DNA of 64,000 nucleotides from Planctomycetota bacterium (lineage in GTDB: Bacteria > Planctomycetota > B15-G4 > JADJEK01): positions 7,842-71,841 of the forward strand of contig JBPOIU010000019.1 in NCBI GenBank assembly GCA_052034255.1, given 5' to 3'. The notes below the pieces were generated by a model. The model was not told the origin of the DNA, did not search any database, and saw nothing but the letters and a program-made list of their open reading frames with translations. How positions within the stretch are numbered: the first letter of the stretch is position 1; every line of letters begins with the position of its first letter. A program made the position numbers and the translations under genes. Below are positions 15,415-28,868 of this stretch, piece by piece.

Positions 15415-18400
15415 CTATGGTGGACAGATCGTGAGCTGGAGCCCGTTCGAGAACGCCACGCCCTGGGCTTGATTCGCGTCCGGCGCCGCGGTCTGGACGA
15501 ACAACGACAAACCGGCGATGCCCGGGTCGTTCGGCAACTGCAGCTCGAACCCCGATTCGCCCTCGATCACGGGCAACACGATGAGCCCGATGAAGCCGAC
15601 CGGCCCGACCAGCAATTGCCCGCCGTAGAACGGCGTGGCGCCCGCGGTCGTCGACAAGAACATGCCGGCCACAGCCGCTCCGCCGAGGTTGAACGCCTCG
15701 ACCTCGAACAACCCACCCACGCGCGGATCCCCGTTGCCGACCAAGCCGAGCGTATGGCTCGGCGCCGCCACGAGTCCGAACGTGGTGAATCCGCATCCCG
15801 CCGGACACGATCCGCCGCCCGTCGGCACTTGCGCGTACGTGAGGATCAACCGCGGCGGTTGCCCCGACGCGACGTTGCGCGCGCTGCGCCATTGCGGGAA
15901 GACCGTCGGTGAGCCGTCGAATACCAAGCCGACATGATTGCCCGGGAGCCAGTCGGGTCGATCGACGACCGCTTGCACCAACGCCGCCAAGTCGGGTGTC
16001 GCGTACGTCGCACCGGGCAGCCACGTCGGGAACGTGTAACTGATCTGCTCGCTGGTCCAGGGCGCGAGTTGCGTGAGGGGCGTACTCGATCCGGCGACGA
16101 ACGCCGGAGCGTCACCGACATCGAACGCGCGCACGATCGCCTGCGGCGCTCCGTCTTGCTGTGCGCCCGCGACGAACTCGATCTTGGCCGACAGGATCGT
16201 CGCGCCGCTCGGCACGTTCAGCGCGAACCGCGCGCCGAGCTGCAACGGACTGAGCGTCGGTTGCTTGCCGACGCGCACGGTCGCCGGATCGGCGGCGTCG
16301 GCGTGTACGACACCGCTCGCGCTCTCGTATTGCGCGAGATCGGCGATCGCCGCGACCGGCACGTTCAGCGTCGTCGACGGCAGCAGCTGATACCGAGCGG
16401 TCAAATGCAGAGCGCCCTGCGGCGCGGTCACCGCATGCTGTCGCGCTCCACCGTCGCTCCAGCATTGGAAGGCGTACGCCTGCCCGCCGACCATCGCGAT
16501 CGCCGGGGCCTCGACGACGTGCGTGAAGCCGACGAGGCTCTCGAGCGCGGTCGGCGTCGGCGTGTTCTCCGCGTCGACCAGCAGCGGCAGACCGAATGGC
16601 TCGGTCTGGAGTCCCAACGCCGAATGTTCGGGCTCGAGTTCGACCTCGGTGGTCGTCGTGAGTCCGTCCGCGTCGGTGACGGTCAGCCGGATCACGTAAT
16701 GGGTGTCATCGGGACCATGCCCCGTCGCCGGCACGGTGAACTGACCCTGCGTCACGCCGGTCAGCGGCCCGAGGAACGGATGCTCGTGCTCGTGGTGATG
16801 CAGCATGACCTTCCACGAGAACGCGCTCGCGGGCAGCGTGCCGTCCTCGGCGTCGGTCGCGCTTCCGAGGAAGCGGATCGTGTCACCCGCAGCGTACGGC
16901 TGGCCCGGCAGCGGCGCGACGATCGACGGTACGGGCGGTGTCCCGACCGCGACGACGATCGGAGCCGACAGCGTCGTCGCGCTGCCGTCGCTGACCGCCA
17001 GTTGCGCGATCTTCAGGCCGTTCGCCGCGTAGGTGTGCAGCGGCTGCGGCAGGTTCGACGTGCCGCCGTCCCCGAACGTCCACGCATAGCTGAGCGGTTG
17101 CGGGCCGGCGTCGGGATCGAACGTCCCGGCGCTCGAGAATTGCACGGCCTGCGGTGCGGGCCCGCTGCCGCTCGCCGCGGACGCGAACACGACGGGAGCC
17201 GCGTTGCCGCCGCCCAACGCGCGGATGCGGTACAGCGCCGAGGCGTCGTTCCAACTGCCGATCGCGCCGCCGAACGTCAGGTAGTACAGCGCGCCATCCG
17301 GCCCGACGCGCATGTCGACGATCGTCCCGGCGTACGGCGGGTACAGGAACAACGGATCGGCGACGACGTCGCCGTTCGCGTCGAACACGAGCCGGCGCAT
17401 CCAGCGATTGACGAAGTCGCCGACGTAGAGGCAATCGCGGTAGCCGGCAGGGAATTGCGCCGCGCGCACGCGCGGCCCCATCGTGATCGAGCCCTGCGGC
17501 ACGAGCAGGTAGTACTCGGGATCGATGTGCTGATACGCGAAGTGCGGCTTCGCGAATCCTGAGCAATCGGCGAGGAAGCACTCGTCGGCTTCGGAATCCG
17601 GCCAGCCGAAGTTCGCGGCCGGCTGGACCAGGTTCGCTTCCTCCCACGACGTGAGATTGTTGCCGCCGACGTCGCCGATCCACATCTGCCCGGTCCGCGG
17701 ATCGACGCTCGAGCGAAACGGATTGCGCAGACCGTAGGCGAAGATCGCCGGCTTCGCGCCCGACGCTCCGACGAACGGATTGTCCGAAGGAACCGACCCG
17801 TCGTCGTTCAGGCGCAGCAGCTTGCCGTCGAACGCCGTCAGATCCTGTGCGCGCGTGGCGACGAAGTTGTCGCCGACGGTCACGTAGAGCTTGCCGTCCG
17901 CGCCGAACGCGAGCGCGCCGCCGTGATGGAAATCCGACGCCAGATGGTCGTTCTGCCAGATCAGCGTCTCGCTGAGCGGATCGACGCTCGCGCCCTGCAC
18001 CGTGAACCGCGCGACCCGGTCGCGCGGTTCGGAGGTCGTGTAGAACGCGTAGAGGTAGCCGTTCGTCACGAACTGCGGATGCGCCGCGAGGCCGACCAAT
18101 CCGCGCTCGCCGTTCGTCGTGTCGACGGCGATCTGCGCGAGCGGCGCCGCTTGCAGTTGGCCGTTCGCGTAGACCTTGATCGCTCCACCGCGTTCACCGA
18201 TCAGCAGCCGGCCGTCGGGCAGGAACTCGAGTACGGTCGGCTCGTTCAGGTTCGTCACCAATTGCGTGCGCTCGAACCCCGGCGGCAACCCGGTGTTCGA
18301 GACGACGGCAGTATGCGTCGCGTTCACCGCCCCGGACATCCACGTCGCCATCGCCGGCCCGCTGGCGATCGTGCCGGAGGGTGCGTTCGCGCCGCTCGTG

Positions 18401-19224
18401 TCGTGCGCGACGGTGCCGACACCCTCTTCGAGGCGATACGAACCGACGAGCCCCGGCGTCAGCGGCAACAGCACGCGATCGAGAGCTTCGAGCACTTGCA
18501 CATGCGAGCGCGCGACGCTCCAGATGCGGATCTCGTCGATGAAGCCGTTGAAGGCCGGGAACTGCGGCAGGTCGTGTTTCGCCGCGCCGATGACCAGGAA
18601 GCGCCCGAGAGCATCCTGCGCGCCGACGACGCCGCCGTCCGGATACGAGAGGTCCGCGGTCGACGCTCCCGCCATGCTGTGCACGTCGAGCGCGCCGTCG
18701 ACGTAGATCGCCTTCTCGCCACTGTCGCGCTCACGGACCACGGCGACGTGGTGCCACGCGCCATCGAGCACCAGCGTGTTGCCTTCCAACGTGTGCTCGT
18801 TGTCCGTCGCCGTTTGGCCACGCCCCGTGCCGAAGCGCACGAAGCCACCGGCGATCGACACCCCGAAGTCGGCGTCGCTGCCGCCGAGGATGTCGCGGTC
18901 GACGACGACGTTGCCGTTCATCCACGCGTTCGTCAGCAGATCGACGTCGCCCCCTGCGTTCGCGGTCGGGTTGTCGGCGAGGTTGCCCTTCACCCAAAAC
19001 TCGATCGTGAAGTCCCCGGCGCCGACGTCGATCGGCGTGTTCCCCGCGCTGCCCGCGACGTCGTCGTCGACCGGAATCTTGATGCGATCCCGTTGCGCGG
19101 TACCGGTGCCGAAGAAGCGGATCGAGAACGACGATGCGGACGATTGGGCCCACGAATCGCTCGCGCAGCAAAGCGCGAGCACCGCGACCGCAACCGACCT
19201 GCCGGCAGACAGGCCGAACGACAT
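15415..19224 (-). CDS. Very large exported multidomain protein: LamG/ConA-like lectin domain, PQQ-dependent sugar (glucose/sorbosone) dehydrogenase-like beta-propeller, PKD domain, and an uncharacterised ~500-aa C-terminal region
   Basis: The start is set at Met 19224 with a signal peptide (MSFGLSAGRSVAVAVLALCCASDSWAQS). The LamG-like motifs are FTIEFWVKG..LDGAWHHVAVV..YVDG. The GSDH motifs are GLVGLAAHPQF, HHGGALAFGADGKLYV and GLRNPF. The PKD motif is SYAWTFGDGGTS. Confidence 0.8.
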   Translation of the reverse strand: MSFGLSAGRSVAVAVLALCCASDSWAQSSASSFSIRFFGTGTAQRDRIKIPVDDDVAGSAGNTPIDVGAGDFTIEFWVKGNLADNPTANAGGDVDLLTNAWMNGNVVVDRDILGGSDADFGVSIAGGFVRFGTGRGQTATDNEHTLEGNTLVLDGAWHHVAVVRERDSGEKAIYVDGALDVHSMAGASTADLSYPDGGVVGAQDALGRFLVIGAAKHDLPQFPAFNGFIDEIRIWSVARSHVQVLEALDRVLLPLTPGLVGSYRLEEGVGTVAHDTSGANAPSGTIASGPAMATWMSGAVNATHTAVVSNTGLPPGFERTQLVTNLNEPTVLEFLPDGRLLIGERGGAIKVYANGQLQAAPLAQIAVDTTNGERGLVGLAAHPQFVTNGYLYAFYTTSEPRDRVARFTVQGASVDPLSETLIWQNDHLASDFHHGGALAFGADGKLYVTVGDNFVATRAQDLTAFDGKLLRLNDDGSVPSDNPFVGASGAKPAIFAYGLRNPFRSSVDPRTGQMWIGDVGGNNLTSWEEANLVQPAANFGWPDSEADECFLADCSGFAKPHFAYQHIDPEYYLLVPQGSITMGPRVRAAQFPAGYRDCLYVGDFVNRWMRRLVFDANGDVVADPLFLYPPYAGTIVDMRVGPDGALYYLTFGGAIGSWNDASALYRIRALGGGNAAPVVFASAASGSGPAPQAVQFSSAGTFDPDAGPQPLSYAWTFGDGGTSNLPQPLHTYAANGLKIAQLAVSDGSATTLSAPIVVAVGTPPVPSIVAPLPGQPYAAGDTIRFLGSATDAEDGTLPASAFSWKVMLHHHEHEHPFLGPLTGVTQGQFTVPATGHGPDDTHYVIRLTVTDADGLTTTTEVELEPEHSALGLQTEPFGLPLLVDAENTPTPTALESLVGFTHVVEAPAIAMVGGQAYAFQCWSDGGARQHAVTAPQGALHLTARYQLLPSTTLNVPVAAIADLAQYESASGVVHADAADPATVRVGKQPTLSPLQLGARFALNVPSGATILSAKIEFVAGAQQDGAPQAIVRAFDVGDAPAFVAGSSTPLTQLAPWTSEQISYTFPTWLPGATYATPDLAALVQAVVDRPDWLPGNHVGLVFDGSPTVFPQWRSARNVASGQPPRLILTYAQVPTGGGSCPAGCGFTTFGLVAAPSHTLGLVGNGDPRVGGLFEVEAFNLGGAAVAGMFLSTTAGATPFYGGQLLVGPVGFIGLIVLPVIEGESGFELQLPNDPGIAGLSLFVQTAAPDANQAQGVAFSNGLQLTICPP

Positions 19225-19455
19225 GGGGAACTCCAGGGGCGGGATACTGGAAGCGAACGGCCTGCGGGTCGAGTGCGGGCCGTTCGCCACGAATTCCTCT
19301 CGGAGGATGCCCGACCGTTCGCTCGCACGCCATGTGTTTCCTGCGGCGATCTGCGACCGCAGATCCATCGAAGCCGAGTGCCATGCTCACGGCCCCGCGC
19401 GCCGTGCGCGGATCGAGCGATTCGAGCCCACGCGCCCCGCCGAATTTTCCCCGAA

Positions 19456-20736
19456 TCAGGGGATCTCGACGAAGGTGTCGGTGCCAGCGCCCGTCGCGAC
19501 CGTGGATTCACCACCGACGACTACCTGGAAGAACGTGACTTCGTCGTCGGCCTTGCCGGCCTTGATCGACAGGTTCCCCGTGACGGAGACGGCGGAGACC
19601 GACACGTCGTTCTCCCCACCACCGAGCGAAAACAGCGCGCCGCCCTCCGCGTTGGACTCGGTGAACACGACGGTGTCCGGCGCTCCCTTGCACTTGACGA
19701 CGACGTCGCCGACGACATGGAGTCGGCTCAACCACGACCATGTCGACGTCTTCGACCGAATGTCGAGCCGCAGGTCGCCACCCACTTCGGTTGGGTGGAT
19801 GAACGACGTCAGCGTCTCGTCGGCGTTCGAAGTGAAACGCACGTCGTCACCGAACACGCAATGCACGACATCCAGTTTCGCGATCGGCCCTTTCGCTGCG
19901 TTGACGCGGATCGCCTGGCTCGCCGATGAGTTCAGGAGCGAGACGCTGAGGTTTGCCGGGCCGCGCAGGTCCACCGCCGAAGCGAACGCGGCCTGGTCGA
20001 TCGCGACGACCGCATTCGGGGCCGTCGCCGTGATCACGGTCGATCCAGCCACGGTCACTTCGCCGATCTTGATCGGCGCTGGTGACGCGCCCTTGAGTCT
20101 CAGGTGTCGGCCAACCGTCACTGCCTCGACGACCGATTCCCCAACCGCAGCCGCGGCGGGTGATTTCCCGAACCTCAGATCCAAGTCGCGCCCGACCGAC
20201 GTGGTCCGAACTCCGAAGTCCAAGCCGACCGCGCCGCTGTCCATTCGCACGTCTCGACCGATGTCGCATTTGGTGACCTCGATCTCGTCCCGATCCGCAC
20301 TCTTCAGCACACGCAGGTCCATGCCGATCGTCGCGTGGTGAACGTTCGCGGAGTCCGCACCGGCTCCAAGTCGCATGCGCAGACTTCGCTCCACGGCGCC
20401 GGCACAATCGAGATGATCGTCGCCACCGCCGAGGTCGACCACGACGTCTCGACCGACGCCTTGGAACGCGACCATGTGGACACCGTTGATCGAAGTCGTC
20501 GCCGCCCCCGCAGTCACGAACCACGCGTTCGAACTCGCGACGTGGACCATGAGCACGGAGTCCGCGTCGGCCCCTCCCGTCACCAACAAGTCGCCGCTCT
20601 TGTTGACCACGGCGCTCACCTCGCCGGCATTCAAGGGAGCCGCGAGCGCAAGAAGAAGCAGTCCGAGCGAGGCGTACCGCGCGGGGCTGCGCCGCTCGCA
20701 TCCAAGTTCCGTCGATCGATCCATCGCCGCCTCCAT
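19456..20736 (-). CDS. Secreted RTX-like beta-roll repeat protein (GGxGxD calcium-binding-type repeats), paralog A
   Basis: The signal peptide (MEAAMDRST..LGLLLLALAAPLNA) is followed by repeats such as DLGGGDDHLD, LGGGENDVSV and TGAGTDTFVEIP, plus GRDxR repeats. It is about 45-50% identical to the adjacent paralog, and the shared segment NAxETLTSFIHPT..STWSWLS is conserved. Confidence 0.65.
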   Translation of the reverse strand: MEAAMDRSTELGCERRSPARYASLGLLLLALAAPLNAGEVSAVVNKSGDLLVTGGADADSVLMVHVASSNAWFVTAGAATTSINGVHMVAFQGVGRDVVVDLGGGDDHLDCAGAVERSLRMRLGAGADSANVHHATIGMDLRVLKSADRDEIEVTKCDIGRDVRMDSGAVGLDFGVRTTSVGRDLDLRFGKSPAAAAVGESVVEAVTVGRHLRLKGASPAPIKIGEVTVAGSTVITATAPNAVVAIDQAAFASAVDLRGPANLSVSLLNSSASQAIRVNAAKGPIAKLDVVHCVFGDDVRFTSNADETLTSFIHPTEVGGDLRLDIRSKTSTWSWLSRLHVVGDVVVKCKGAPDTVVFTESNAEGGALFSLGGGENDVSVSAVSVTGNLSIKAGKADDEVTFFQVVVGGESTVATGAGTDTFVEIP

Positions 20737-20777
20737 GGCCGAGTGCACCGGTGCTTCAGGGCGCCAGTACGCGAAGA

Positions 20778-22031
20778 TCACGGGATCACCGTGAGGGTGT
20801 CGGTTCCGATGCCGGTCTTCACGATCGGCGAGCCGCCAAGTGCGACCTTGTAGAAGTAGACGTCGTCGTTGCCCTTGCCGGCACGAACGGCGAGATCGCC
20901 GTCGATGGTGACCGCGGACAGAGTGAACTCGTTGTCGCCGCCGCGCAGATCGAACGAAACGTCGCCACCGCAGGACGATTCCGTGTACGTCAGGCTGTCG
21001 ACGCCATTCTTCGTCCGAACGACGATCGCGCCACTGACGTCGAGCTTGCTGAGCCACGACCACGTCGAAGTCACTGAACGCAGATCCATGCGCAGATTGC
21101 CGTGGATCCAAGTCGGATGGATGAACGACGTCAGCGTCTCGGCCGCGTTCGACGTCCACAGCAAGTCCCCCCACACCTCGCTCAGGATGACGCCGAACGT
21201 CGCGACCTGCCCCTTGCCCGCGACGACGCGTGCGCGTCCCTCGATCTTGCTCTCGACGAGCGAAACCGACACGTCGCCCGTGCCACGAACGTCCAGGTTC
21301 GCATGGAACATCGACCCCGCGATCGCGATCGCGCTGAACGGCACGACCGCACGAATGTCGGCCTTGCCGTCCACGGTCGTGTTCGTCACCTCGATCGTCT
21401 TCGGTGACGCACCGACCAACGTGAGGTTGCGACCGATCGAGCTGTCCTCGAGTCGTGTCGACCCGAACGTCCCCAATGCCGAGGCGGTACCGAAACCGAT
21501 GGCCGCGTCGCGCTTGATCGTCGAAGTCCGGATCCGATAGGCGACTCCGGCCGCGCCACTCTTGACTCGCAAGTCGCGACCGACCGACATCCCGTCGAGC
21601 GCGAGAGAATCGCGATCCGCGCCCTTCTCGATGCGCACGTCCCGGCCGATCGTCGCGTTGTTGACGCCGAAGAAATCCTCGCCGGACCCCAACCTCACGC
21701 GCAGGTCACGTGGCGCGATGCCGGCGAAGTCGACGCGGTCGTCGCCTCCGCCCATGTCGAACACGACATCGCGCGCGACTCCGTAGAACGTGTCGGCCGT
21801 GAAGCCGTTGATCGTCGTCGGCGACAACGTCGACTGGATCGCCCAGTAGTTCCCGCCCGGCGAATAGAACACCGCGATGTCGTCGCGGACCTCCGAGCCC
21901 TTGACGACGAGGTCACCGGACTTCGACACGAACGCCTCGACGTCGGCAGCGCGGGCACTCGCACCCACCGACGCGATGAACGCGAACGCTGTTAGAGCAA
22001 GACCTTGCGACCGGAACTTCGAACCAAGCAT
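20778..22031 (-). CDS. Secreted RTX-like beta-roll repeat protein, paralog B (tandem duplicate of paralog A)
   Basis: The start at Met 22031 gives a signal peptide (MLGSKFRSQGLALTAFAFIASVGASARA). Repeat motifs include DMGGGDDRVDF, LRGGDNEFTL and TGIGTDTLTVIP, and the C-terminal third is collinear with paralog A. Confidence 0.65.
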   Translation of the reverse strand: MLGSKFRSQGLALTAFAFIASVGASARAADVEAFVSKSGDLVVKGSEVRDDIAVFYSPGGNYWAIQSTLSPTTINGFTADTFYGVARDVVFDMGGGDDRVDFAGIAPRDLRVRLGSGEDFFGVNNATIGRDVRIEKGADRDSLALDGMSVGRDLRVKSGAAGVAYRIRTSTIKRDAAIGFGTASALGTFGSTRLEDSSIGRNLTLVGASPKTIEVTNTTVDGKADIRAVVPFSAIAIAGSMFHANLDVRGTGDVSVSLVESKIEGRARVVAGKGQVATFGVILSEVWGDLLWTSNAAETLTSFIHPTWIHGNLRMDLRSVTSTWSWLSKLDVSGAIVVRTKNGVDSLTYTESSCGGDVSFDLRGGDNEFTLSAVTIDGDLAVRAGKGNDDVYFYKVALGGSPIVKTGIGTDTLTVIP

Positions 22032-22104
22032 GGGAGCCTCCTTCGCGTGGCCATCGACGCTCGACCGCGGACTCGCGGCAGGGGTCGGGACAAAGGTCGC
22101 CACG

Positions 22105-22149
22105 AGGAACGCAGCCTGGCCCCCCAACGAATTTCGCCCGATTTCGCCC
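22105..22149 (+). promoter_or_regulatory. Candidate ECF-type promoter (GGAAC, 17 nt, CGAA) followed by a tandem 10-bp direct repeat (ATTTCGCCC g ATTTCGCCC) upstream of the ECF sigma factor gene
   Basis: All motifs are read directly from the sequence: ggaac at 22105..22109, cgaa at 22127..22130, and atttcgccc at 22130..22138 and again at 22140..22148. The match to an ECF -35/-10 is loose and the function is an inference. Confidence 0.2.
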
Positions 22150-22233
22150 AAAGCCGCCTCGAACCCGTCCAGAGCGCAGTCGCTACTCTCGGCCCAGTTG
22201 CCGGTGCCTCGTTCTCCGGGCAGGATCGGGGCC

Positions 22234-22863
22234 ATGAGCGACGAGCCATCACCCGACCTCGAGGGATTGACGCGCGCCATCCAGGCGTGGACGGGCGGCG
22301 ACCCTGCCGCCGAACACGACGTGTTCTCACGCCTGCAGCAGGAGTTGCGAAGGATCGCGCGCGCTCAGCTCGGCGCGGAGGCGAACCGCCACACGCTGCA
22401 ACCCACGGCGCTCGTGCATGAAGCCTGGGTCAAACTGTTCCACACCGGCAACCCCGGCGTCGAAGGTCGATCGCATCTGGTCGGACTGATGGCGAAGGCG
22501 ATGCGATCGGTACTCGTCGACCACGCGCGTGCGAAGGCAGCCCAAAAGCGCGGCAGTTCGGCGCGGCCGTTGTCCCTCGATGCGACCGGGGTCGTTCGCT
22601 CCGACGACTCTGGCCTCACGGTCGAACCCGCCGACTTGCTCGTCGTCGACGAGACGATCGAGCGGCTGCGCGCGGTCGACGCAGAATTGGCTCAGGTCGT
22701 CGAACTGCGTTTCTGGGCCGGACTCACGAACGAGGACATCGCGTCCGCGCTACGCGTCCATCCACACACGGTCGAGCGTCGCTTCCAATTGGCACGGGCG
22801 TGGATGCAGCGCGAGCTGGATCGCGCGGCAACCCGCTCGCGTGACGACGGGCCGCGTGCATGA
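22234..22863 (+). CDS. ECF-family RNA polymerase sigma-70 factor
   Basis: The start is set at ATG 22234 (MSDEPSPDLEGL...). The sigma-2 region (LVHEAWVKLF) and sigma-4 region (ELRFWAGLTNEDIASALRVHPHTVERRFQLARAWM) are recognisable. The stop overlaps the kinase start in ATGA. Confidence 0.85.
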   Translation: MSDEPSPDLEGLTRAIQAWTGGDPAAEHDVFSRLQQELRRIARAQLGAEANRHTLQPTALVHEAWVKLFHTGNPGVEGRSHLVGLMAKAMRSVLVDHARAKAAQKRGSSARPLSLDATGVVRSDDSGLTVEPADLLVVDETIERLRAVDAELAQVVELRFWAGLTNEDIASALRVHPHTVERRFQLARAWMQRELDRAATRSRDDGPRA

Positions 22864-25800
22864 ACGATCGCTGGCACGACGTCCGCACGTGGTTCGAACG
22901 AGCCCTCGACCACCCCGCCACCGAGCGCGAAGCGTTCGTGAAGAGCCAATGCGGAGACGATCCAGGCTTGGTCGAAGAAGTCGTCGAGTTGCTGCGCGCG
23001 GCGGCGCGCGACTCGAGTCTGAGTGCTGCACTCGAATCCGGACCCTTGCGCGCACCGGCCGCACTCGCGATCGGCGATCGCGTCGGTCGGTATCGACTGG
23101 AACGCGTCCTCGGCCATGGCGGCATGGGAACCGTGTGGGCCGCGAGGCAGGACGCGCCCGATCGGTTGGTCGCGTTGAAGGTCTTGCACCACGCGCTCGC
23201 ACGACCCGAGGACGCGGCGCGATTCCGGTTCGAAGCCGAAGTGCTCGCACGGTTGCGCCATCCGAGCATCGCCCAGATCCACGAGGCGGGCCAACTCGAC
23301 GGCGGGCAGCCCTATTTCGCGCTCGAGTACGTCGACGGCGGCACGCCGCTGCATGCCTACGTGAAGTCGCACGCGCTCCCGCGCAGCGGACGTTTGGCGC
23401 TGCTCGCGACGATTTGCGACGCCGTCGCACACGGACACCAGCGCGGCGTGGTGCATCGGGACCTGAAGTCCGCAAACGTCCTCGTCGACTCCGCCGGATT
23501 TCCGAAGGTGATCGACTTCGGCATCGCCCGAGCGATCGACGTCGGCGCAGTCGATGCGCCGTCGTTCACGCGCACCGGCGAAGTCGTCGGCACGTTGTCG
23601 TCGATGGCCCCCGAGCAACTCGACACCGCGGTCGACGCGGTGGACGTGCGCACCGACGTCTACCAACTCGGTGTGATGCTCTACCAACTGCTGACGGATC
23701 GTCTGCCGATCGACCTCGCGGGCGCTTCGATCGTCGAAGCCGCGCGCCGCATCGAGACCGAGGACCCTGCGCCGCCGTCGACCTTGGTCCACGACGGACC
23801 CCGTGAACTCGATTGGATTGCCGCCCGCGCGCTCGCGAAGGACAAGGAGCGACGCTACGCATCGGCATCCGAGTTCGCGGCCGACCTGCGTCGGCATCTG
23901 GCCGGCGAAGCCGTGCTCGCCGCGCCGGACGGACTGGCGTACCGCGTTGCCGTGTTCACGCGGCGGCATCGGATCGGACTGATCGCGACGGCTGTCGCGA
24001 TGTTCGGCCTCGCGGGCGGACTCGTCGCCGCACTGCGCGCGCGCAGTAGCGAGTTCGATGCACGTGTGCGCGCCGAGTCGGCGTTGCGACGCGCACGCTC
24101 GGCGAACGCGTTCATGGTCGGCATTTTCTCGGCGGCCCGCCCCGACGAGAGCGGCCGCGACGTCCGCGTCCGCGACGTGTTGTCGGTCGCGGACCTCGAT
24201 CTCGCCCGCGGCTTCGATGGTCCACCGGAGGTAGAGACTGCCGCGCGTGCGACCCTCGGAGCATCGTGGCTCGCACTCGACATCGTCGACGCCGCCGAGC
24301 CGCACCTCGTGGCGGCGTATGAACTGCGCGAACGCACACTAGGCCCCGACGATCCCGAGACACTGGACTCGTTGCGCGACCTCGCGACACTGCGGAGCCG
24401 ACAGGGCCGCGCTCAGGAAGCTCGACGGCTGTTCGAGGAGTTGGTCGAACGCGGCACGCGTGTGCTCGGCTTGGACCATCCAGATCCCTGGCAGGCACGC
24501 GCCCACTTCGCAGTCGTGCTCCAGGCCTGTGGGGATTTGACGAACGCCGAGCGCGAAGCACGTGCGGCCAAAGACGCGCTCGCGCGTCTCGTCTCGGCCG
24601 CCGATGTGCGACGATCCGACGCCGAGCAAGCCCTGACTTCGATCCTCGAAGCGCGTGGCGACGACGGGGGCGCGATCGAACTCGCGCGCGCTTCGTACGA
24701 ACGCTTGCGGTCCGCCCTCGGTCCAACGCACCCGCGTTCGTTGTCCGCGGCCAACCAACTCGGCCGCCTGTCGATCGATGGCGGGCGCGTCGACGAAGGC
24801 GTCGCGCTGCTCGAGAACGCCCTGAAGGCGAGCGTCGAACGACTCGGAGCGGATCACGACATGACGCTGCGCGTCGAGGAGAGCCTACTCACCTCCCTGC
24901 GCCATTCCGCGCGCGCCGACGAAGCGGCTCGTCGGTTCGTCGACGTGATCGCGCGCCGGACGCGCAAGGACGGGGCCACCCATTACCGGACGCTGCAAGA
25001 CCGCGGCGTGCTAGGCACCTCGCTCGCACGACTGGGTCGAGTCGACGAAGCCCTCGGCGAACTCAACGAGGCGCACGCGCTCGCGGTGACCGCGCTCGGC
25101 GCCGACGATCCGATCACGCTACAGCTGGCGACGTGGCTCGCGCAGACGCGACTCGATTCCGGCGACGTCGACGGCGCGGAAGCAGACCTCCGTCGCGTGC
25201 TCGACTCGCCGGAAGCGATCCAGCACGCTACGGCGCCCCGCATGCTCGCGATCAAGGAGACCCTCGCGCTCGTGTTGCGCGATTCCGGTCGCGCGGCCGA
25301 CGGTGCCCCGTTGATGCGCGACGTGTTGGACGCGCGCAGGCGCGCACTCGGCGACGGCGCACTCGACACATTGCGTGCATTCTTGAATGCCTCCGGTCTC
25401 GAAGCGATGACCGGGAACCTCGAGGTCGCGACGCAGTACGCGCGATCCGCGCACTCGGGATTCCGCGCGATCTACGGCGGCGACCACGTCGCGGTCCTGG
25501 TGTCGACCCAAACGCTGGCAACGATCCTCGGTCGGCGCGGCGACTGGACCGCGGCGCTGCCGTTGCAAGAGGACGCGCTCGCGCTGTCGACACGACTGTT
25601 CGGCGACGAGCACCCGGCGGTTCATGACGCGGCCGGTGAGCTCGGGATGTCGCTGAGACGGGTCGAGCGGTTCGAAGAAGCGCGACCGCTGTTGTCCCGA
25701 GCAATGGTCTCCCGCGAGCGCGCGTTCGGTAGGGACAGCCCATGGAGTCGTTCGGCGCGAGCCGAATATGCCGCCTCCTGCCTCGACCTCGGTGACGTGG

Positions 25801-26084
25801 TCGGCGCCTTTGGCGCGATCGACGAACTCGCCGAGAACGACGACGAGCTCGTCGCTGTCGCACGCGCGTGGACGGCCGTCGACCGTTCGTCTGCTCCTGA
25901 GTTCACGTTCGGTTCGACCGTCGACGCGACCTCGCGCTTCGCGGCCCGGCTCGCCGGCGTCGTTGCACGCTCCGATTCACCAGAGCTCGGCAAGACGCTA
26001 CGCCTAGCCCTCCTCGCGCATGCCGCCACGATTGCGGCCCCCGCCGAGGCGATCGCCGAACTGGAAGCGCTGGCCGCGCCGTGA
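22860..26084 (+). CDS. Ser/Thr protein kinase with N-terminal ECF-partner extension and long C-terminal TPR repeat region (1074 aa)
   Basis: The N-terminus is WFERALDHPATEREAFVKSQCGDDPGLVEEVVELL, the motif typical of sigma-associated kinases. Hanks kinase motifs are present (GHGGMGTVWAA, ALK, HRDLKSANVLV, DFGIA, APE), and the C-terminal half is built of TPR repeats. Confidence 0.85.
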   Translation: MNDRWHDVRTWFERALDHPATEREAFVKSQCGDDPGLVEEVVELLRAAARDSSLSAALESGPLRAPAALAIGDRVGRYRLERVLGHGGMGTVWAARQDAPDRLVALKVLHHALARPEDAARFRFEAEVLARLRHPSIAQIHEAGQLDGGQPYFALEYVDGGTPLHAYVKSHALPRSGRLALLATICDAVAHGHQRGVVHRDLKSANVLVDSAGFPKVIDFGIARAIDVGAVDAPSFTRTGEVVGTLSSMAPEQLDTAVDAVDVRTDVYQLGVMLYQLLTDRLPIDLAGASIVEAARRIETEDPAPPSTLVHDGPRELDWIAARALAKDKERRYASASEFAADLRRHLAGEAVLAAPDGLAYRVAVFTRRHRIGLIATAVAMFGLAGGLVAALRARSSEFDARVRAESALRRARSANAFMVGIFSAARPDESGRDVRVRDVLSVADLDLARGFDGPPEVETAARATLGASWLALDIVDAAEPHLVAAYELRERTLGPDDPETLDSLRDLATLRSRQGRAQEARRLFEELVERGTRVLGLDHPDPWQARAHFAVVLQACGDLTNAEREARAAKDALARLVSAADVRRSDAEQALTSILEARGDDGGAIELARASYERLRSALGPTHPRSLSAANQLGRLSIDGGRVDEGVALLENALKASVERLGADHDMTLRVEESLLTSLRHSARADEAARRFVDVIARRTRKDGATHYRTLQDRGVLGTSLARLGRVDEALGELNEAHALAVTALGADDPITLQLATWLAQTRLDSGDVDGAEADLRRVLDSPEAIQHATAPRMLAIKETLALVLRDSGRAADGAPLMRDVLDARRRALGDGALDTLRAFLNASGLEAMTGNLEVATQYARSAHSGFRAIYGGDHVAVLVSTQTLATILGRRGDWTAALPLQEDALALSTRLFGDEHPAVHDAAGELGMSLRRVERFEEARPLLSRAMVSRERAFGRDSPWSRSARAEYAASCLDLGDVVGAFGAIDELAENDDELVAVARAWTAVDRSSAPEFTFGSTVDATSRFAARLAGVVARSDSPELGKTLRLALLAHAATIAAPAEAIAELEALAAP

Positions 26085-26147: not shown

Positions 26148-28868
26148 ATGTCGAACACGTCTGCCGACCTCGAGGATCGTCCGATGGCGGAACACGCCGA
26201 CGCCGAACGTGCCCGCCTCGCCGAGGACGAGGCCCGCACGAAGAACTGGAAACGCTTCGGGCCCTATTTGGCCGAGCGCCAATGGGGCACGGTCCGCGAG
26301 GACTACTCGAAGGACGGCGAGTGTTGGGACTACTTCCCGTTCGAACAGTCGCACACCCGCGCATACCGGTGGGGTGAGGACGGCCTGCTCGGCATCACCG
26401 ATCGGGAGTGTCGCCTGTGCTTCGCGGTCGCGCTGTGGAACGGCAAGGACCCGATCCTCAAAGAGCGTCTCTACGGCCTGAACGGCAAACAGGGCAACCA
26501 CGGCGAAGACGTCAAGGAGGTCTACTACTACCTCGACTCGACGCCGACCCATTCGTACATGCGCGCGCAGTACTCGTACCCGCACGCGGAGTTCCCGTAC
26601 GCGCGGTTGATCGACGAGAACGCGAAGCGCGATCGGGAGCAGCGCGAGTTCGAACTCACCGACACCGGCGTGTTCGCCGAGTCGCGGTACTTCGACGTGA
26701 TCGCCGAATACGCGAAGGCGAGCCCGGACGACGTGCTCATCCGATTGAACGTCGTCAACCGCGGCCCGGAGCGCGCACGCATCCATGTGCTGCCGCAATT
26801 GTGGTTCCGCAACACGTGGAGTTGGGGCGACACGTACGACGACACGCGCACGAAGCCCGCACTGCGCAAGATGAGCGCGCACACCGTGCTCGCCGAACAT
26901 CCGACGCTCGGCACGTTCCAGTGGTGCGTGGACTCCACGCAGGACGGCAAGACCGCGCCGCTGCTGTTCACCGAGAACGAATCGAATCTGCGCGCGTTGT
27001 TCTCGACCGAGAACGCTTCGCCGTACGTGAAGGACGCGTTCCACGGCGTCGTCGTCCATGGCGAGCATCAACGGGCGAACCCGCGCTCGCAGGGCACGAA
27101 ATGCGCCGCGTGGTTCGTTCTCGATCTCGAGCCCGGGGCGACCCAGGTGCTCCGAATGCGCTTGCGGCCAGCCGACGCGCGTGGCTGCGAAGCGTTCCAC
27201 GAGGACTTCGACACCACGTTCGCCGTGCGCGAAGCCGAGGCCGACGACTTCTTCGCCTCGATCCTGCCGGCGAACGAACGCCCGGAAGAACGACGCGTGG
27301 CGCGGCAGGCGTACGCGGGCTTGCTGTGGAGCAAGCAGTTCTATCACTACGTCGTCGCGGACTGGTTGGCGGGCGATCCCGCGCAGCCGAAGCCTCCCCC
27401 GCAGCGGTCCACGGGACGCAATGCCGACTGGCCGCATCTGTTCAACCGCGACGTCATCTCGATGCCGGACAAGTGGGAGTACCCGTGGTATGCGGCGTGG
27501 GACCTCGCGTTCCACACGATCCCGTTCGCGCGCATCGATCCCGCGTTCGCGAAGGACCAGCTGCTGCTGTTCCTGCGCGAGTGGTACATGCACCCGAACG
27601 GCCAGATCCCCGCGTACGAGTGGAACTTCTCGGACGTCAATCCACCGGTCCACGCTTGGGCCACGTGGCGCGTCTACAAGATGACCGCGAAGCGCGGCGA
27701 GCGCGATCGCGCATTCCTCGCACGCGTGTTCCAGAAACTGCTGATCAACTTCACTTGGTGGGTGAACCGCAAAGACCTGCATGGCAAGCACGTCTTCGCC
27801 GGCGGCTTCCTCGGTCTCGACAACATCGGCGTGTTCGATCGCAGCAAGCCGTTGCCGAAAGGCGGGCACCTCGAGCAGGCCGACGGCACGGCGTGGATGG
27901 CGTTCTATTGCCTGACGATGCTCGCGATCGCGCTCGAACTGGCGCAAGAAGACCCGGCCGCCGAAGACATGGCGTCGAAGTTCTTCGAGCACTTCGTCGC
28001 GATCGTCGACGCGATGAACACGCTGAACGGCTCCGGGCTGTGGGATTCGACCGACGGCTTCTACTACGACCTCATGCATTGCGACGGCCACGCGACTCCG
28101 ATCCGCGTGCGTTCGATGGTCGGACTGATCCCGTTGTTCGCGGCCGAGATCCTCGACGAGGACCACATCGCGAACCTCCACGGCTTCAAGAAACGCATGG
28201 CGTGGTTCCTGCGCCATCGTTCCGACCTCGCGCGCCACATCGCGTTCGCGGAGGCCGATGAGCGCAGCTCGGGCAAGCGTCGCCTGTTGGCCGTCGTGCC
28301 GAGAGCGCGCCTCGAGCGCATGCTGAAGTACTTGCTCGACGAGAACGAGTTCTTGTCGCCGTACGGCGTGCGCTCCCTGTCGAAGGTCCACGCGGACAAG
28401 CCGTTCGTCCTCGACGTCGACGGCGAACAACACCGCGTCGACTATCAACCGGGCGAGTCGAACTCGGGCCTGTTCGGCGGCAACTCGAATTGGCGCGGAC
28501 CGATCTGGTTCCCGCTGAACTACCTCCTGATCGAGGCGCTCGAGCGCCATCACCATTTCTACGGCGACGACTTGCAAGTCGAGTTCCCCACGGGCTCGGG
28601 TCGTAAAGCGACTCTGCTCGAGGTGTCCCGCGAACTCGGACGTCGCCTGACGCGCTTGTTCCTGCCCGACGAACACGGGGCTCGCCCATGCCACGGCGGC
28701 GATCCGCGTTACGCACGCGGTGGGACCGCGCAGGACCTCGTGTTGTTCCACGAGTACTTCCACGGCGACACCGGCGAGGGGCTCGGCGCGAGTCATCAAA
28801 CCGGGTGGACCGCGCTGGTCGTGAAATTGCTCGAGGATCGCGCGCACGACCGCGTGCCCCCGCGCTGA
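26148..28868 (+). CDS. Glycoside hydrolase family 63-like protein (mannosyl-/glucosylglycerate hydrolase or processing-glucosidase-like)
   Basis: The 906-aa product has an N-terminal WDYFPFEQSHTRAYRWGEDGL motif and an (alpha/alpha)6-barrel-like C-terminal half. The family call comes from recalled motif similarity, not from a search. Confidence 0.55.
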   Translation: MSNTSADLEDRPMAEHADAERARLAEDEARTKNWKRFGPYLAERQWGTVREDYSKDGECWDYFPFEQSHTRAYRWGEDGLLGITDRECRLCFAVALWNGKDPILKERLYGLNGKQGNHGEDVKEVYYYLDSTPTHSYMRAQYSYPHAEFPYARLIDENAKRDREQREFELTDTGVFAESRYFDVIAEYAKASPDDVLIRLNVVNRGPERARIHVLPQLWFRNTWSWGDTYDDTRTKPALRKMSAHTVLAEHPTLGTFQWCVDSTQDGKTAPLLFTENESNLRALFSTENASPYVKDAFHGVVVHGEHQRANPRSQGTKCAAWFVLDLEPGATQVLRMRLRPADARGCEAFHEDFDTTFAVREAEADDFFASILPANERPEERRVARQAYAGLLWSKQFYHYVVADWLAGDPAQPKPPPQRSTGRNADWPHLFNRDVISMPDKWEYPWYAAWDLAFHTIPFARIDPAFAKDQLLLFLREWYMHPNGQIPAYEWNFSDVNPPVHAWATWRVYKMTAKRGERDRAFLARVFQKLLINFTWWVNRKDLHGKHVFAGGFLGLDNIGVFDRSKPLPKGGHLEQADGTAWMAFYCLTMLAIALELAQEDPAAEDMASKFFEHFVAIVDAMNTLNGSGLWDSTDGFYYDLMHCDGHATPIRVRSMVGLIPLFAAEILDEDHIANLHGFKKRMAWFLRHRSDLARHIAFAEADERSSGKRRLLAVVPRARLERMLKYLLDENEFLSPYGVRSLSKVHADKPFVLDVDGEQHRVDYQPGESNSGLFGGNSNWRGPIWFPLNYLLIEALERHHHFYGDDLQVEFPTGSGRKATLLEVSRELGRRLTRLFLPDEHGARPCHGGDPRYARGGTAQDLVLFHEYFHGDTGEGLGASHQTGWTALVVKLLEDRAHDRVPPR

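Follow-up and report, generated by a model that had tools for sequence, protein, structure and literature searches.

Tandem predicted beta-solenoid paralogs with Sec-type leaders, RTX-like by analogy only, encoded divergently from an ECF sigma factor-kinase operon in a Planctomycetota bacterium

Two adjacent minus-strand genes in a 64-kb stretch of planctomycete DNA (the whole stretch analysed, hereafter the window) encode tandem paralogs, designated A and B, which carry Sec-type leaders and are confidently predicted to fold as beta-solenoids. They lie divergently from an operon for an ECF sigma factor and a Ser/Thr kinase. The explanation that best accounts for the whole is that A and B are a Sec-exported solenoid pair serving as the local output of the adjacent sigma-kinase module, and we give it about an even chance of being correct. 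Planctomycetes possess dozens of ECF sigma factors, many of which are paired with Ser/Thr kinases, and to our knowledge a target gene or promoter is known for almost none of them.

Organization and export signals of the two paralogs

Gene B, the promoter-proximal paralog (20778..22031, minus strand), encodes a protein of 417 aa, and gene A, the distal paralog (19456..20724, minus strand), encodes one of 422 aa. The best start of B is the ATG at 22031, preceded by the ribosome-binding site AAGGAGG (22037..22043, minus strand; GGAGGCTCCCATG is invariant across the window and loci L001 and L003), and its stop is at 20778. The best start of A, the ATG at 20724 with GGAGG on its 5' side, is located 53 nt downstream of B, and its stop is at 19456. 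The interval considered in the sequence-only reading (19456-22233) has as its right edge the start of a JGI call (P0001; 485 aa, beginning MAPILPG) that, if used, would abut the sigma start. Because P0001 is over-extended and the orthologs of B start at the position equivalent to 22031 (P0002 and P0003, from NCBI and Logan; both 417 aa, equal in length to B and 76 and 74% identical to it, respectively), this interval includes the 202-nt divergent intergenic region.

BLASTP aligned A with B over 414 aa at 43% identity and with 6 gaps (E 6e-114), in agreement with the earlier claim that they are tandem collinear paralogs, and no third copy was found within the window. With the second member of the syntenic L001 pair, A shares 63% identity. 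Every motif string quoted in the sequence-only reading was recovered, namely DLGGGDDHLD and TGAGTDTFVEIP in A, LRGGDNEFTL and TGIGTDTLTVIP in B, and ETLTSFIHPT...STWSWLS in both, and the C-terminal ends of A and B are VEIP and TVIP, respectively.

Judged from sequence features alone, both proteins carry Sec-type signal peptides, as had been claimed. The leader of B comprises aa 1-28 (MLGSKFRSQGLALTAFAFIASVGASARA, followed by ADV; 21948..22031, minus strand) and that of A comprises aa 1-33 (ending in LGLLLLALAAPLNA, followed by GEV; 20626..20724, minus strand). Each N-terminus contains a basic n-region and the strongest hydrophobic window of the protein, the cleavage motifs being LNA/GEV in A and ARA/ADV (an AxA-type site) in B, and inspection of the two leaders revealed no lipobox Cys. 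The N-termini of both AlphaFold models are disordered (pLDDT below 50 in the leader of B). The mature proteins are acidic, with a pI of about 5. Among 149 representatives of the family to which A and B belong (described below), 101 have a mature N-terminus of the form (A/G)(G/A)(D/N/E)V, and in 61 an LExR-type leader directly precedes the same G(D/N)V mature start. Some relatives thus resemble the Planctomycete extracellular proteins of PF07595 in carrying an LExR leader, and 2 of 43 family members match that model, whereas A and B use a classical Sec signal peptide and gave no match to it. These leaders and matches place the family, as far as sequence can indicate, among planctomycete extracellular proteins.

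The adjacent sigma factor, kinase and downstream gene

The ECF sigma factor divergent from B (209 aa; 22234..22863, plus strand) was assigned to PF07638 (Pfam E 9e-47). In its sigma2.2 region, QPTA (Q56-A59, including T58; 22399-22410, plus strand) occupies the place of DAED, and both QPTA and HTLQPTALVHEAW are invariant in five orthologs. The last 4 nt of the sigma gene, its stop included, are shared with the start of a gene for a Hanks-type Ser/Thr kinase (1,074 aa; 22860..26084, plus strand; Pfam Pkinase, TPR_12 and TPR_10), and no anti-sigma gene is present between the two. The kinase contains a predicted single transmembrane helix at about aa 372-392 (23973-24035, plus strand; hydropathy peak 2.19), and the part C-terminal to it consists of about 680 aa of TPR repeats. 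The Pfam assignments of the two proteins confirm the earlier description of an ECF sigma and Ser/Thr kinase operon from which the pair diverges.

In ECF43 sigma factors, the DAED of sigma2.2 is replaced by a QTTA phospho-switch with a conserved Thr (PMC13147305, PMC8999054), and the Q-x-T-A of the window sigma factor (QPTA, for the QTTA consensus) matches this type of switch in sequence. As in EcfP/PknT of Vibrio parahaemolyticus and EcfK/PknS of Xanthomonas citri, the sigma factor is translationally coupled to a transmembrane Ser/Thr kinase without an anti-sigma factor. In contrast, the known outputs of EcfP and EcfK are polymyxin-resistance genes and T6SS, not secreted solenoids, and phosphorylation in the present system is putative. 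Other STK-linked groups, ECF59-62 and ECF217, are found in planctomycetes as well (PMC7826278), and the likeness to ECF43 lies here in the motif and the kinase pairing.

A gene encoding a 1,317-aa protein with LamG, glucose-sorbosone dehydrogenase (GSDH) and PKD domains according to Pfam (15415..19368, minus strand) follows A in the same orientation after 87 nt, and the same order is found in L001. Neither a terminator-like site nor a second copy of the motif described below was found between A and this gene, which is possibly co-transcribed with A and B. The more distant loci L006 and L008 lack it.

Conserved gene order and a promoter-like motif

The divergent arrangement of the sigma-kinase operon and a solenoid gene recurs in other MAGs, at loci L001/L002, L003-L005, L006 and L008, and a Pkinase and TPR kinase follows the PF07638 sigma gene also in L001, L003, L006 and L008. 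In L006 and L008 the sigma factor is 63% identical and the solenoid only 27-30% identical to those of the window; in L008, another family gene lies next to the opposite end of the operon. Since family genes were found near only one (L049) of 80 other PF07638 loci, the sigma-solenoid link is clade-specific, and inherited gene order could partly explain it.

A bipartite promoter-like element, GAAATTC-GTT-GGGGGG-N15-CGTGGC (22098..22135, minus strand), is present upstream of B, its 3' end being separated from the ATG by 66 nt. The element, a weak version of a family motif, GGAWTCC-N3-GGGGG-N16-CGTGAC (or GGAWTCC-N24-CGTGAC), is positionally homologous in alignment to strong copies in L001 and L003. 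The motif, which was first spotted by eye and formalised afterwards, occurs 25-70 nt upstream of 11 family-gene starts in several genomes, including some genes that do not adjoin any sigma gene (two each in L009, L094 and L010), and GGAWTCC-N24-CGTGAC has no match in 2.2 million background positions drawn from 80 unrelated PF07638-sigma loci. When the distant clade supplies the training set of the matrix, the sites of L001 and L003 score above all background; the window copy is degenerate (GAAATTC and CGTGGC), and its score of -4.2 with the cross-clade matrix does not exceed that of about 3,800 background positions. The G-rich -35-like region of the motif is unlike the classical ECF GGAAC boxes. 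Most of the scattered paralogs (L093 and L095) lack the motif. No copy was found on the sigma strand, and there is thus no sign of autoregulation.

The suggestion in the sequence-only reading that A and B are regulon targets of the operon gains support from the recurrence of the divergent arrangement at 27-30% solenoid identity and from the shared motif, and is weakened by the poor copy in the window. It is conceivable, although unlikely, that A and B are ordinary neighbours of the operon, the gene order being inherited lineage synteny and the motif a lineage promoter of another sigma factor, with no functional tie to the ECF sigma factor or the kinase. The scarcity of family genes near other PF07638 loci, the orthology of the sigma factors at all linked loci, the weakness of the window copy and the occurrence of the motif before family genes far from any sigma gene are all in keeping with such a history. 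However, the exact divergent arrangement was retained while the solenoid fell to 27-30% identity, which argues for selection, and the motif, absent from the 2.2 million control positions, is bipartite with fixed spacing and has a CGT-containing -10-like box as in ECF promoters.

Predicted fold and structural analogues

AlphaFold2 predicted A as a beta-solenoid (pLDDT 90.6, pTM 0.86) and B as an all-beta solenoid (pLDDT 90.1, pTM 0.87). Both thus belong, by confident prediction and not by a solved structure, to the class of beta-solenoids with about 15 coils, and the earlier expectation of a repeat solenoid rather than an enzyme fold holds at this level (pLDDT 90-91). In B, an N-terminal cap domain (aa 29-88; 21768..21947, minus strand) bears the signature GDVxAxVxxGxLxxxG...TT(I/V)NG, with beta strands at pLDDT above 95, and its residues T72, N75 and G76 are invariant or nearly so in a 43-sequence alignment. 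The solenoid body comprises aa 89-417 in B (about 15 coils of about 22 aa; 20781..21767, minus strand), as delimited by the period of 22 and the DSSP pattern, and aa 94-422 in A (15 coils; 19459..20445, minus strand), as delimited by a DSSP coil table. The coils of A measure 21-23 aa (modal 22), with one of 27 aa and the last, C-terminal coil shortened to 16 aa. Autocorrelation peaks at 22, 44 and 66 indicate a repeat period of 22 residues, and the repeat spacing in the DNA is 66 nt. Each coil is composed of a short strand, a GxGxD-type loop, a long kinked strand and a tight G(R/G)D turn; one turn of the solenoid contains three strands.

The GxGxD-type loops number five per protein and are found solely in the two coils at the N-terminal end of the body and the three at its C-terminal end (B, 21738-21752, 21675-21689, 20928-20942, 20865-20879 and 20799-20813; A, 20416-20430, 20353-20367, 19609-19623, 19543-19557 and 19477-19491; all minus strand); Ca2+-type loops are absent from the central 8-10 coils. 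The near-invariant columns of the family correspond to Gly, Asp and Asn in these terminal loops. By analogy with RTX-like solenoids, the loops are probable Ca2+ sites that would stabilise both ends of the rod outside the cytoplasm. The best-conserved stretch between A and B is the block ETLTSFIHPT...STWSWLS (aa 298-328 of B, two stacked coils, 21048..21140; aa 303-333 of A, coils 10 and 11, 19726..19818; both minus strand). This block does not make up a domain of its own, as the segment consists of strands of coils 10 and 11. By register, its F, H, W and W are proposed to line one face, and this aromatic patch, identical in A and B, is a candidate ligand site.

The analogy of the models to solved folds is loose, all Foldseek E-values being above 1e-3 and TM at most 0.52. 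The best analogue, particularly of B, appears to be region IV (RIV) of MpAFP/MpIBP, the ice adhesin of Marinomonas primoryensis. B matched the Ca2+-bound structure (3p4g_B) with a probability of 0.99, TM of 0.41/0.52 and rmsd of 5.4 A over 316 columns, at an E-value of only 0.05-0.06 and 15% identity, and A matched 3P4G more weakly (TM 0.23-0.38, E 0.08-0.9). RIV is a Ca2+-bound beta-helix called RTX-like by its authors, with the repeat consensus xGTGNDxuxuGGxuxGxux of 19-21 residues (PMC3492233). A and B share with it the xGxGxD-u-x-u loop, one to a coil (e.g. AGKGNDDVYF and TGIGTDTLTV), and the form of a rod of 13-15 coils with a probable extracellular location. Their coils are of 22 rather than 19-21 residues, however, and only 5 of 15, the terminal ones, have a Ca2+ loop, whereas RIV has one in every coil; moreover, RIV is a domain of a 1.5-MDa adhesin (RTX-type according to its authors). 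A and B, in contrast, are Sec substrates of 40 kDa that stand alone and have an N-terminal cap. The passengers of autotransporters and TPS systems (Hap, 3SYJ; UpaB, 6BEA; EtpA), which are surface adhesins, likewise form long, right-handed solenoids with three faces and some 20-25 residues per coil, and B matched them at Foldseek E-values of 0.035-0.037, but TM does not exceed 0.28, A and B are much shorter and lack a beta-barrel translocator domain or TpsB partner, and GxGxD loops are not a trait of these passengers.

A three-strand coil of 22 residues is typical of right-handed parallel beta-helices, and A and B might instead be beta-helix carbohydrate-active enzymes or glycan binders (pectate-lyase-, tailspike- or PL6-like) that act with the GH63-like and LamG/GSDH/PKD neighbours on extracellular polysaccharide. 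This is distinctly unlikely. Carbohydrate-related genes do adjoin A and B but are not kept in the distant loci L006 and L008, and the conserved Trp/Phe/His block could serve as a sugar platform, but no conserved catalytic-type acidic/basic cluster was identified. The weak Foldseek matches to enzymes, among them tailspike depolymerases, PL3/PL6 lyases and GH28, all have E above 0.1 and TM of at most 0.30; Pfam Beta_helix, Pectate_lyase and Pel9A do not match A or B, and the profile search of PDB sequences reached a pectinesterase at E 0.69 only.

A proposed pathway

If A and B are the output of the sigma-kinase module, the transmembrane kinase would sense an envelope or extracellular cue via its large TPR domain and would phosphorylate the intrinsically inactive ECF sigma factor at T58 of QPTA. 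The holoenzyme of this sigma factor and RNA polymerase would fire the bipartite promoter upstream of B; we infer both the promoter function of the element and its use by this sigma factor. B and A, possibly together with the downstream LamG/GSDH/PKD protein, would be made as one transcript and exported, and outside the cell the rods would probably serve as a scaffold or in binding, at the surface or in the periplasm. The envelope-stress and surface-layer adhesin roles offered for the pair in the sequence-only reading are putative.

The solenoids could alternatively be part of the sensor, instead of or besides the output, binding the kinase at its extracytoplasmic TPR domain and acting as a co-receptor, ligand carrier or feedback inhibitor. 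Their linkage to the kinase operon outlasts divergence to 27-30% identity, family genes are located at both ends of the operon in L008/L010, and the TPR region of about 680 aa, a protein-protein interaction module, follows a single transmembrane helix; in addition, ECF neighbourhoods typically encode regulators (PMC7826278). We nevertheless regard this as quite improbable: at 27-30% versus 63% identity, the solenoids have diverged far more rapidly than the sigma factor, an unusual pace for an obligate partner, many solenoid paralogs are unlinked to any kinase, and the extracytoplasmic placement of the TPR side is an assumption of the sensor reading itself. It is a long shot that the solenoids are a hitherto unrecognised, dedicated effector class of a planctomycete phospho-activated ECF sigma factor, forming a defined regulon of secreted, Ca2+-capped 22-mer rods under GGAWTCC-N3-G5-N16-CGTGAC that feed back on the extracellular TPR domain of the kinase via the invariant aromatic patch. 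If true, this would constitute a self-contained 'secrete-and-sense' surface circuit.

Relationship to RTX proteins

RTX repeats have a period of 9 residues, with 18 per turn and two Ca2+ loops per coil, and type-1 secretion (T1SS) involves a C-terminal signal without an N-terminal leader and linked ABC/MFP genes. A and B resemble RTX proteins (PF00353; CyaA blocks, PDB 7USL chain C) in having turns rich in Gly and Asp that precede a short hydrophobic strand, an acidic character, a probable extracellular destination and a parallel beta-solenoid, and CyaA RTX751 is the lowest-E Foldseek match for both models (E 0.024 and 0.0029), with a TM of only 0.17. In contrast, A and B have a period of 22 with one loop per coil, not two, and an N-terminal Sec leader in place of a C-terminal T1SS signal, and none of the immediate neighbours (sigma, kinase, GH63-like, LamG/GSDH/PKD and NMT1-type binding protein genes) is of T1SS type. 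PF00353 (HemolysinCabind) gave no match to A or B at a cutoff as loose as E<=10, and none to the 43 family members at E<=0.01; searches of Pfam, NCBIfam, PHROGs and PDB sequences with A and B gave no match, and the family profile found no RTX chain among PDB sequences. The strict nonapeptide GGxGxDxUx, searched as a regular expression, occurs 0 times in each protein, and there is no nonapeptide tandem.

The GGxGxD beta-roll motifs of the sequence-only reading therefore stand as GxGxD-type loops but not as RTX nonapeptides, and its proposal of RTX/hemolysin-type repeat membership failed on the lack of a PF00353 match, the period of 22 and the Sec leader. It is highly improbable that A and B are genuine members of the RTX family, with beta-rolls of hemolysin-type Ca2+-binding nonapeptides like those of toxins, proteases and S-layer proteins secreted by the type-1 route; their membership in the RTX family is essentially refuted, and the term 'RTX-like' survives for them only as a structural analogy.

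The solenoid family and its significance

The family comprises 216 representative clusters, 23 of them at E<=1e-10 and all named 'hypothetical'; its named members are of Planctomycetota origin, and the family is apparently based in this phylum. It diverges rapidly and tends to form paralogs. A and B, which score 317 and 353 bits, respectively, with the family HMM, can be aligned over their full length with 41 relatives, with invariant or nearly invariant columns in the cap and the terminal loops, and a C-terminal Pro is found in 46 of the 149 representatives. As defined here, this unnamed family would be recognised by a leader, a G(D/N/E)V...TT(V/I)NG cap, 22-residue coils and a terminal GxGxD coil that often ends in Pro, and A and B show all of these features.

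These proteins constitute a family of unannotated secreted beta-solenoids without a Pfam or NCBIfam model, which merits a model of its own against mislabelling or neglect, and which extends the 'RTX-like' theme of Ca2+-loop solenoids to a 22-residue, Sec-exported form. The locus itself offers a concrete, conserved sigma-kinase-target triad with a candidate promoter, by which one planctomycete phospho-sigma pathway is made directly testable.

Gene organization and export signals

Genes A and B lie in tandem on the minus strand. The most plausible start of gene B is the ATG at 22031, which is preceded by AAGGAGG and opens a 417-aa reading frame ending at 20778 (stop included). Gene A (ATG at 20724, stop at 19456; 422 aa), preceded by GGAGG, begins 53 nt downstream of B. 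The JGI call for B (P0001; 485 aa, beginning with MAPILPG) is over-long, adding 68 codons that span the entire intergenic region (22032–22235) up to the start of the neighbouring ECF sigma factor gene. In other assemblies the B orthologs have 417 aa, with starts equivalent to 22031, and this position, with its conserved GGAGGCTCCCATG, is the credible start. The interval proposed in the sequence-only reading (19456–22233) contains both genes, and its right end corresponds to that of P0001. Long antisense ORFs, numerous in the vicinity of the locus, are the usual artefact of a G+C content of 65–70%.

The proposal that A and B are tandem collinear paralogs was borne out by their alignment, which is collinear from end to end (43% identity, 63% positives, 6 gaps, E 6e-114). 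The 64-kb window contains no third copy. Because orthologs are closer (76% identity for B and 63% for A) than the two paralogs are to one another, the duplication is older than the split from the lineage of L001, a locus from another assembly. In each protein the N-terminus combines a basic stretch with the most strongly hydrophobic window of the chain, ends in an AxA-type site (LNA|GEV in A and ARA|ADV in B), and lacks a lipobox cysteine, in agreement with the Sec signals predicted earlier. The two N-termini are also the sole disordered parts of the predicted structures. The mature proteins are acidic (pI ~5.0) and end in EIP (A) and VIP (B), and all peptide strings quoted in the sequence-only reading were found in the two proteins.

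Linkage to the sigma factor–kinase operon

As the sequence-only reading stated, the pair is divergent from an ECF sigma factor–Ser/Thr kinase operon. The sigma factor gene (22234–22863, plus strand; 209 aa; PF07638, E 9e-47) is separated from B by 202 nt, and its stop overlaps by 4 nt the start of a Hanks-type kinase gene (22860–26084, plus strand; 1074 aa). In the kinase, one transmembrane helix (about residues 372–392; 23973–24035, plus strand) precedes ~680 residues of TPR repeats. The identical divergent arrangement occurs in the fetched loci L001/L002 and L003–L005, where the B proteins are 74–76% identical, and is kept in L006 and L008, where the sigma factor is 63% identical and the adjacent solenoid just 27–30%. 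The L008 contig carries an extra family gene at the opposite end of its sigma–kinase–kinase operon.

As controls, 80 other PF07638 loci, with sigma factors 36–46% identical, were collected by a sigma-alignment scan of genome contigs. Family genes were found within 9 kb in only one of these (L049), so it is with this particular orthogroup of sigma factors, not with PF07638 generally, that the family is associated.

Other genes were noted near family members. A 1317-aa LamG/glucose-sorbosone-dehydrogenase (GSDH)/PKD protein is encoded 87 nt downstream of A (15415–19368, minus strand) and a GH63/MGH1-like glycoside hydrolase downstream of the kinase (26148–28868, plus strand); both genes are syntenic in L001 and missing from the distant L006 and L008. 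ExbB/ExbD-type genes lie near family members in two unrelated loci (L006, 11863–12955; L009, 3960–4427). In L009 the promoter-like motif described below begins 13 nt past the ExbD stop. The proximity of these genes may be coincidental.

A promoter-like element upstream of family genes

Comparison of the regions upstream of family genes brought out a two-part motif of constant spacing, GGAWTCC-N3-GGGGG-N16-CGTGAC (i.e. GGAWTCC-N24-CGTGAC), often followed by TTC, with its 3′ end 25–70 nt ahead of the start codon. Sites are present in L001 (9896–9931), L003 (5659–5694), and L008 (5940–5976), in degenerate form in L006, upstream of array genes 1 and 3 of L009 (4440–4476 and 7462–7498), and upstream of two genes each in L010 (about 4165–4200 and 5937–5974) and L094 (genes at 1684 and 2973). 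No such motif precedes the L093 and L095 paralogs. Across the 80 unrelated sigma loci, which supplied 2.2 million control positions, regular-expression forms of the motif matched nowhere, and with a matrix trained on the distant clade alone, the L001 and L003 sites outrank every control position. The copy in the window (GAAATTC GTT GGGGGG N15 CGTGGC; 22135–22098, minus strand) is positionally homologous to these two sites and is a weak match, scoring −4.2 with the same matrix, a value equalled by ~3,800 control positions.

The element is laid out like an ECF promoter, with constant spacing and a −10-like box that contains CGT, and adjacency suggests that the neighbouring ECF sigma factor is the one that uses it. 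Several motif sites adjoin no sigma gene, and no copy was found on the sigma strand, where it was sought as a sign of autoregulation. The GGATTCC half is close to a palindrome, a property of possible relevance in a divergent intergenic region. Regulation of A and B by the sigma factor, as proposed from the sequence, is plausible in view of the divergent synteny and the upstream motif, both of which are conserved, but the weak copy in the window detracts from it. Given that the linked loci all fall within a single sigma orthogroup and that the window itself has a weak copy of the motif, it is also possible that the solenoid genes accompany the sigma–kinase pair through coincidental, inherited synteny.

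A second conserved block, CGGCAACYGGGCCG, lies near the sigma factor start and is recorded on the minus strand as CGGCAACTGGGCCG (22180–22200), ~35–50 nt from the sigma ATG. Its GCAAC-N1-2-GGG form is common to the window, L001, and L003 and is looser in L006 and L008; it may be part of the promoter or 5′ UTR of the sigma operon itself. A sigma-70 promoter scan of 19200–22400 yielded nothing, and the three terminator-like matches in this region all lie within the coding regions of A and B. No Rfam family reached its gathering score anywhere in the window (1–64000).

A putative phospho-switch in the sigma factor

Region sigma2.2 of ECF sigma factors usually carries an acidic DAED/DxxD motif. 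In the window's sigma factor, this is replaced by QPTA (Q56–A59; 22399–22410, plus strand), within HTLQPTALVHEAW, which is invariant in five orthologs. ECF43 sigma factors have the consensus QTTA at this site, the second Thr of which is phosphorylated by the partner Hanks kinase, providing the negative charge needed for binding to core RNA polymerase, as shown for EcfP/PknT and EcfK/PknS (PMC13147305, PMC8999054). The QPTA motif resembles QTTA at the same place, suggesting an ECF43-style phospho-switch with T58 as the putative phosphorylated residue. Kinase-linked ECF groups typically have no anti-sigma factors (PMC7826278), and none is encoded at the window locus. As a less probable alternative, the solenoid proteins could themselves interact with the TPR domain of the kinase, as a co-sensor or a feedback ligand, which, if true, would be the most interesting outcome.

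Predicted fold and comparison with RTX proteins

AlphaFold2 models built with a 43-sequence alignment are confident and all-beta (pLDDT 90.6 and pTM 0.86 for A; 90.1 and 0.87 for B), supporting the repeat solenoid predicted from the sequence. When cut at the predicted strands, model A consists of a 60-residue N-terminal cap and 15 coils, 14 of 21–23 residues (one has 27) and a short final coil of 16. Each coil runs from a short strand, typically (L/V)R(V/L)xx, through a 4–6-residue loop into a long strand kinked into two and then a three-residue tight turn, G-(R/G)-D, which corresponds to the GRDxR repeat recognized earlier. The GxGxD loop form is confined to coils 1, 2, 13, 14, and 15 in each paralog, and the Gly, Asp, and Asn columns of these loops are invariant or nearly so in the whole family alignment. 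The shared segment ETLTSFIHPT...STWSWLS is present in both paralogs, as had been noted, and is where they are most conserved. It is not a separate domain but forms the long strands of neighbouring coils 10 and 11. By register, its F, H, W, and W occupy alternate positions on two stacked strands; they would therefore make up an exposed patch of aromatic residues, a possible site of ligand binding.

In Foldseek searches against the PDB, neither model had a match at E ≤ 1e-3. The lowest E-values were to the CyaA RTX block (0.024 for A and 0.0029 for B), with a TM-score of just 0.17, and the best geometric match was between model B and 3P4G chain B (probability 0.99, TM 0.41/0.52, rmsd 5.4 Å over 316 columns, 15% identity, E 0.06); autotransporter passengers and tailspikes scored lower. 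3P4G is region IV of the Marinomonas primoryensis ice adhesin, a Ca2+-bound right-handed beta-helix that its authors call RTX-like, with repeats of 19–21 residues (xGTGNDxuxuGGxuxGxux; PMC3492233). The turns of A and B resemble such Ca2+ loops in style, whereas their coil length differs. The modelled fold is a beta-solenoid with Ca2+-loop-like turns, for which homology to solved or curated families is not demonstrable. An ice-binding role, raised solely by the analogy to 3P4G, is not favoured, as most Ca2+ loops have been lost. A beta-helix enzyme or binder acting on glycans is possible, but has neither catalytic nor HMM support.

As a family label, the RTX assignment of the sequence-only reading did not hold. 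Scans of A and B against Pfam (to E = 10), NCBIfam, and PHROGs gave no relevant match, HemolysinCabind matched none of 43 family members, and when the family profile was run against all PDB chain sequences, many RTX proteins among them, no hit fell below E 0.6. The GGxGxD-type motifs stood in so far as GxGxD loops occur in five coils per paralog, but the strict nonapeptide GGxGxDxUx is found in neither protein. BLOSUM autocorrelation, with peaks at lags 22, 44, and 66, gives an internal period of 22 residues, and repeats are spaced 66 nt at the DNA level. RTX proteins use type-1 secretion, and an N-terminal Sec leader follows the opposite logic. Genuine RTX-family membership is thus essentially excluded.

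Distribution and features of the solenoid family

When 1.84 billion cluster representatives were searched exhaustively with HMMER, 216 family proteins passed E ≤ 1e-3 and 23 of them passed E ≤ 1e-10; their length is mostly 350–550 aa. The source names seen were all 'hypothetical protein', and the organisms named were Planctomycetes or Pirellulales MAGs. Members have in common the cap signature G(D/N)VxAxVxxGxLxxxG...TT(V/I)NG, 22-residue coils, and a last coil with GxGxD; like A and B, 46 of 149 representatives end in Pro. In 61 of the 149 (P0005–P0153), an LExR-type (LExLExR) 'Planctomycete extracellular' leader replaces the classical Sec signal peptide; the two leader types are interchangeable, both abutting the same G(D/N)V mature start. 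Pfam scans of the 43 relatives gave just sporadic unrelated matches apart from PF07595, in 2 of the 43.

Tandem arrays are the rule: L009 and L094 each have three copies, and the window, L001, L012, and L049 have two apiece. The family has undergone massive expansion in the MAGs GCA_964493525.1 and GCA_964580365.1, which carry many scattered copies, at least 16 among the contigs examined (L009, L093, L094, L095, L010, and L012), often in tandems of two or three. The 90% identity cluster of the family protein P0019, otherwise a planctomycete solenoid, includes a 46-aa record, MDK6765222.1 ('transcriptional regulator, partial [Klebsiella aerogenes]'), which is probably due to contamination or mis-binning.

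Proposed regulation and function

On the basis of sequence hallmarks, we propose that the TPR domain of the membrane kinase would sense a cue, that the kinase would phosphorylate T58 of the sigma factor, and that the resulting holoenzyme would fire the promoter upstream of B. B and A would then be produced, possibly together with the LamG/GSDH/PKD protein, because the same gene order is found in L001 and no terminator or second motif intervenes. The two proteins would be exported by Sec, and their terminal GxGxD coils would bind Ca2+ outside the cytoplasm, locking the rod. The rods may serve as scaffold or binding proteins at the cell surface or in the periplasm, and the invariant aromatic block is a candidate binding site. 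That they diverge rapidly compared with the sigma factor and have been duplicated repeatedly is consistent with exposed surface proteins. A and B represent an unannotated family of putatively Sec-exported beta-solenoids with 22-residue coils and RTX-like loops, tied to a putatively kinase-activated ECF sigma factor in planctomycetes.
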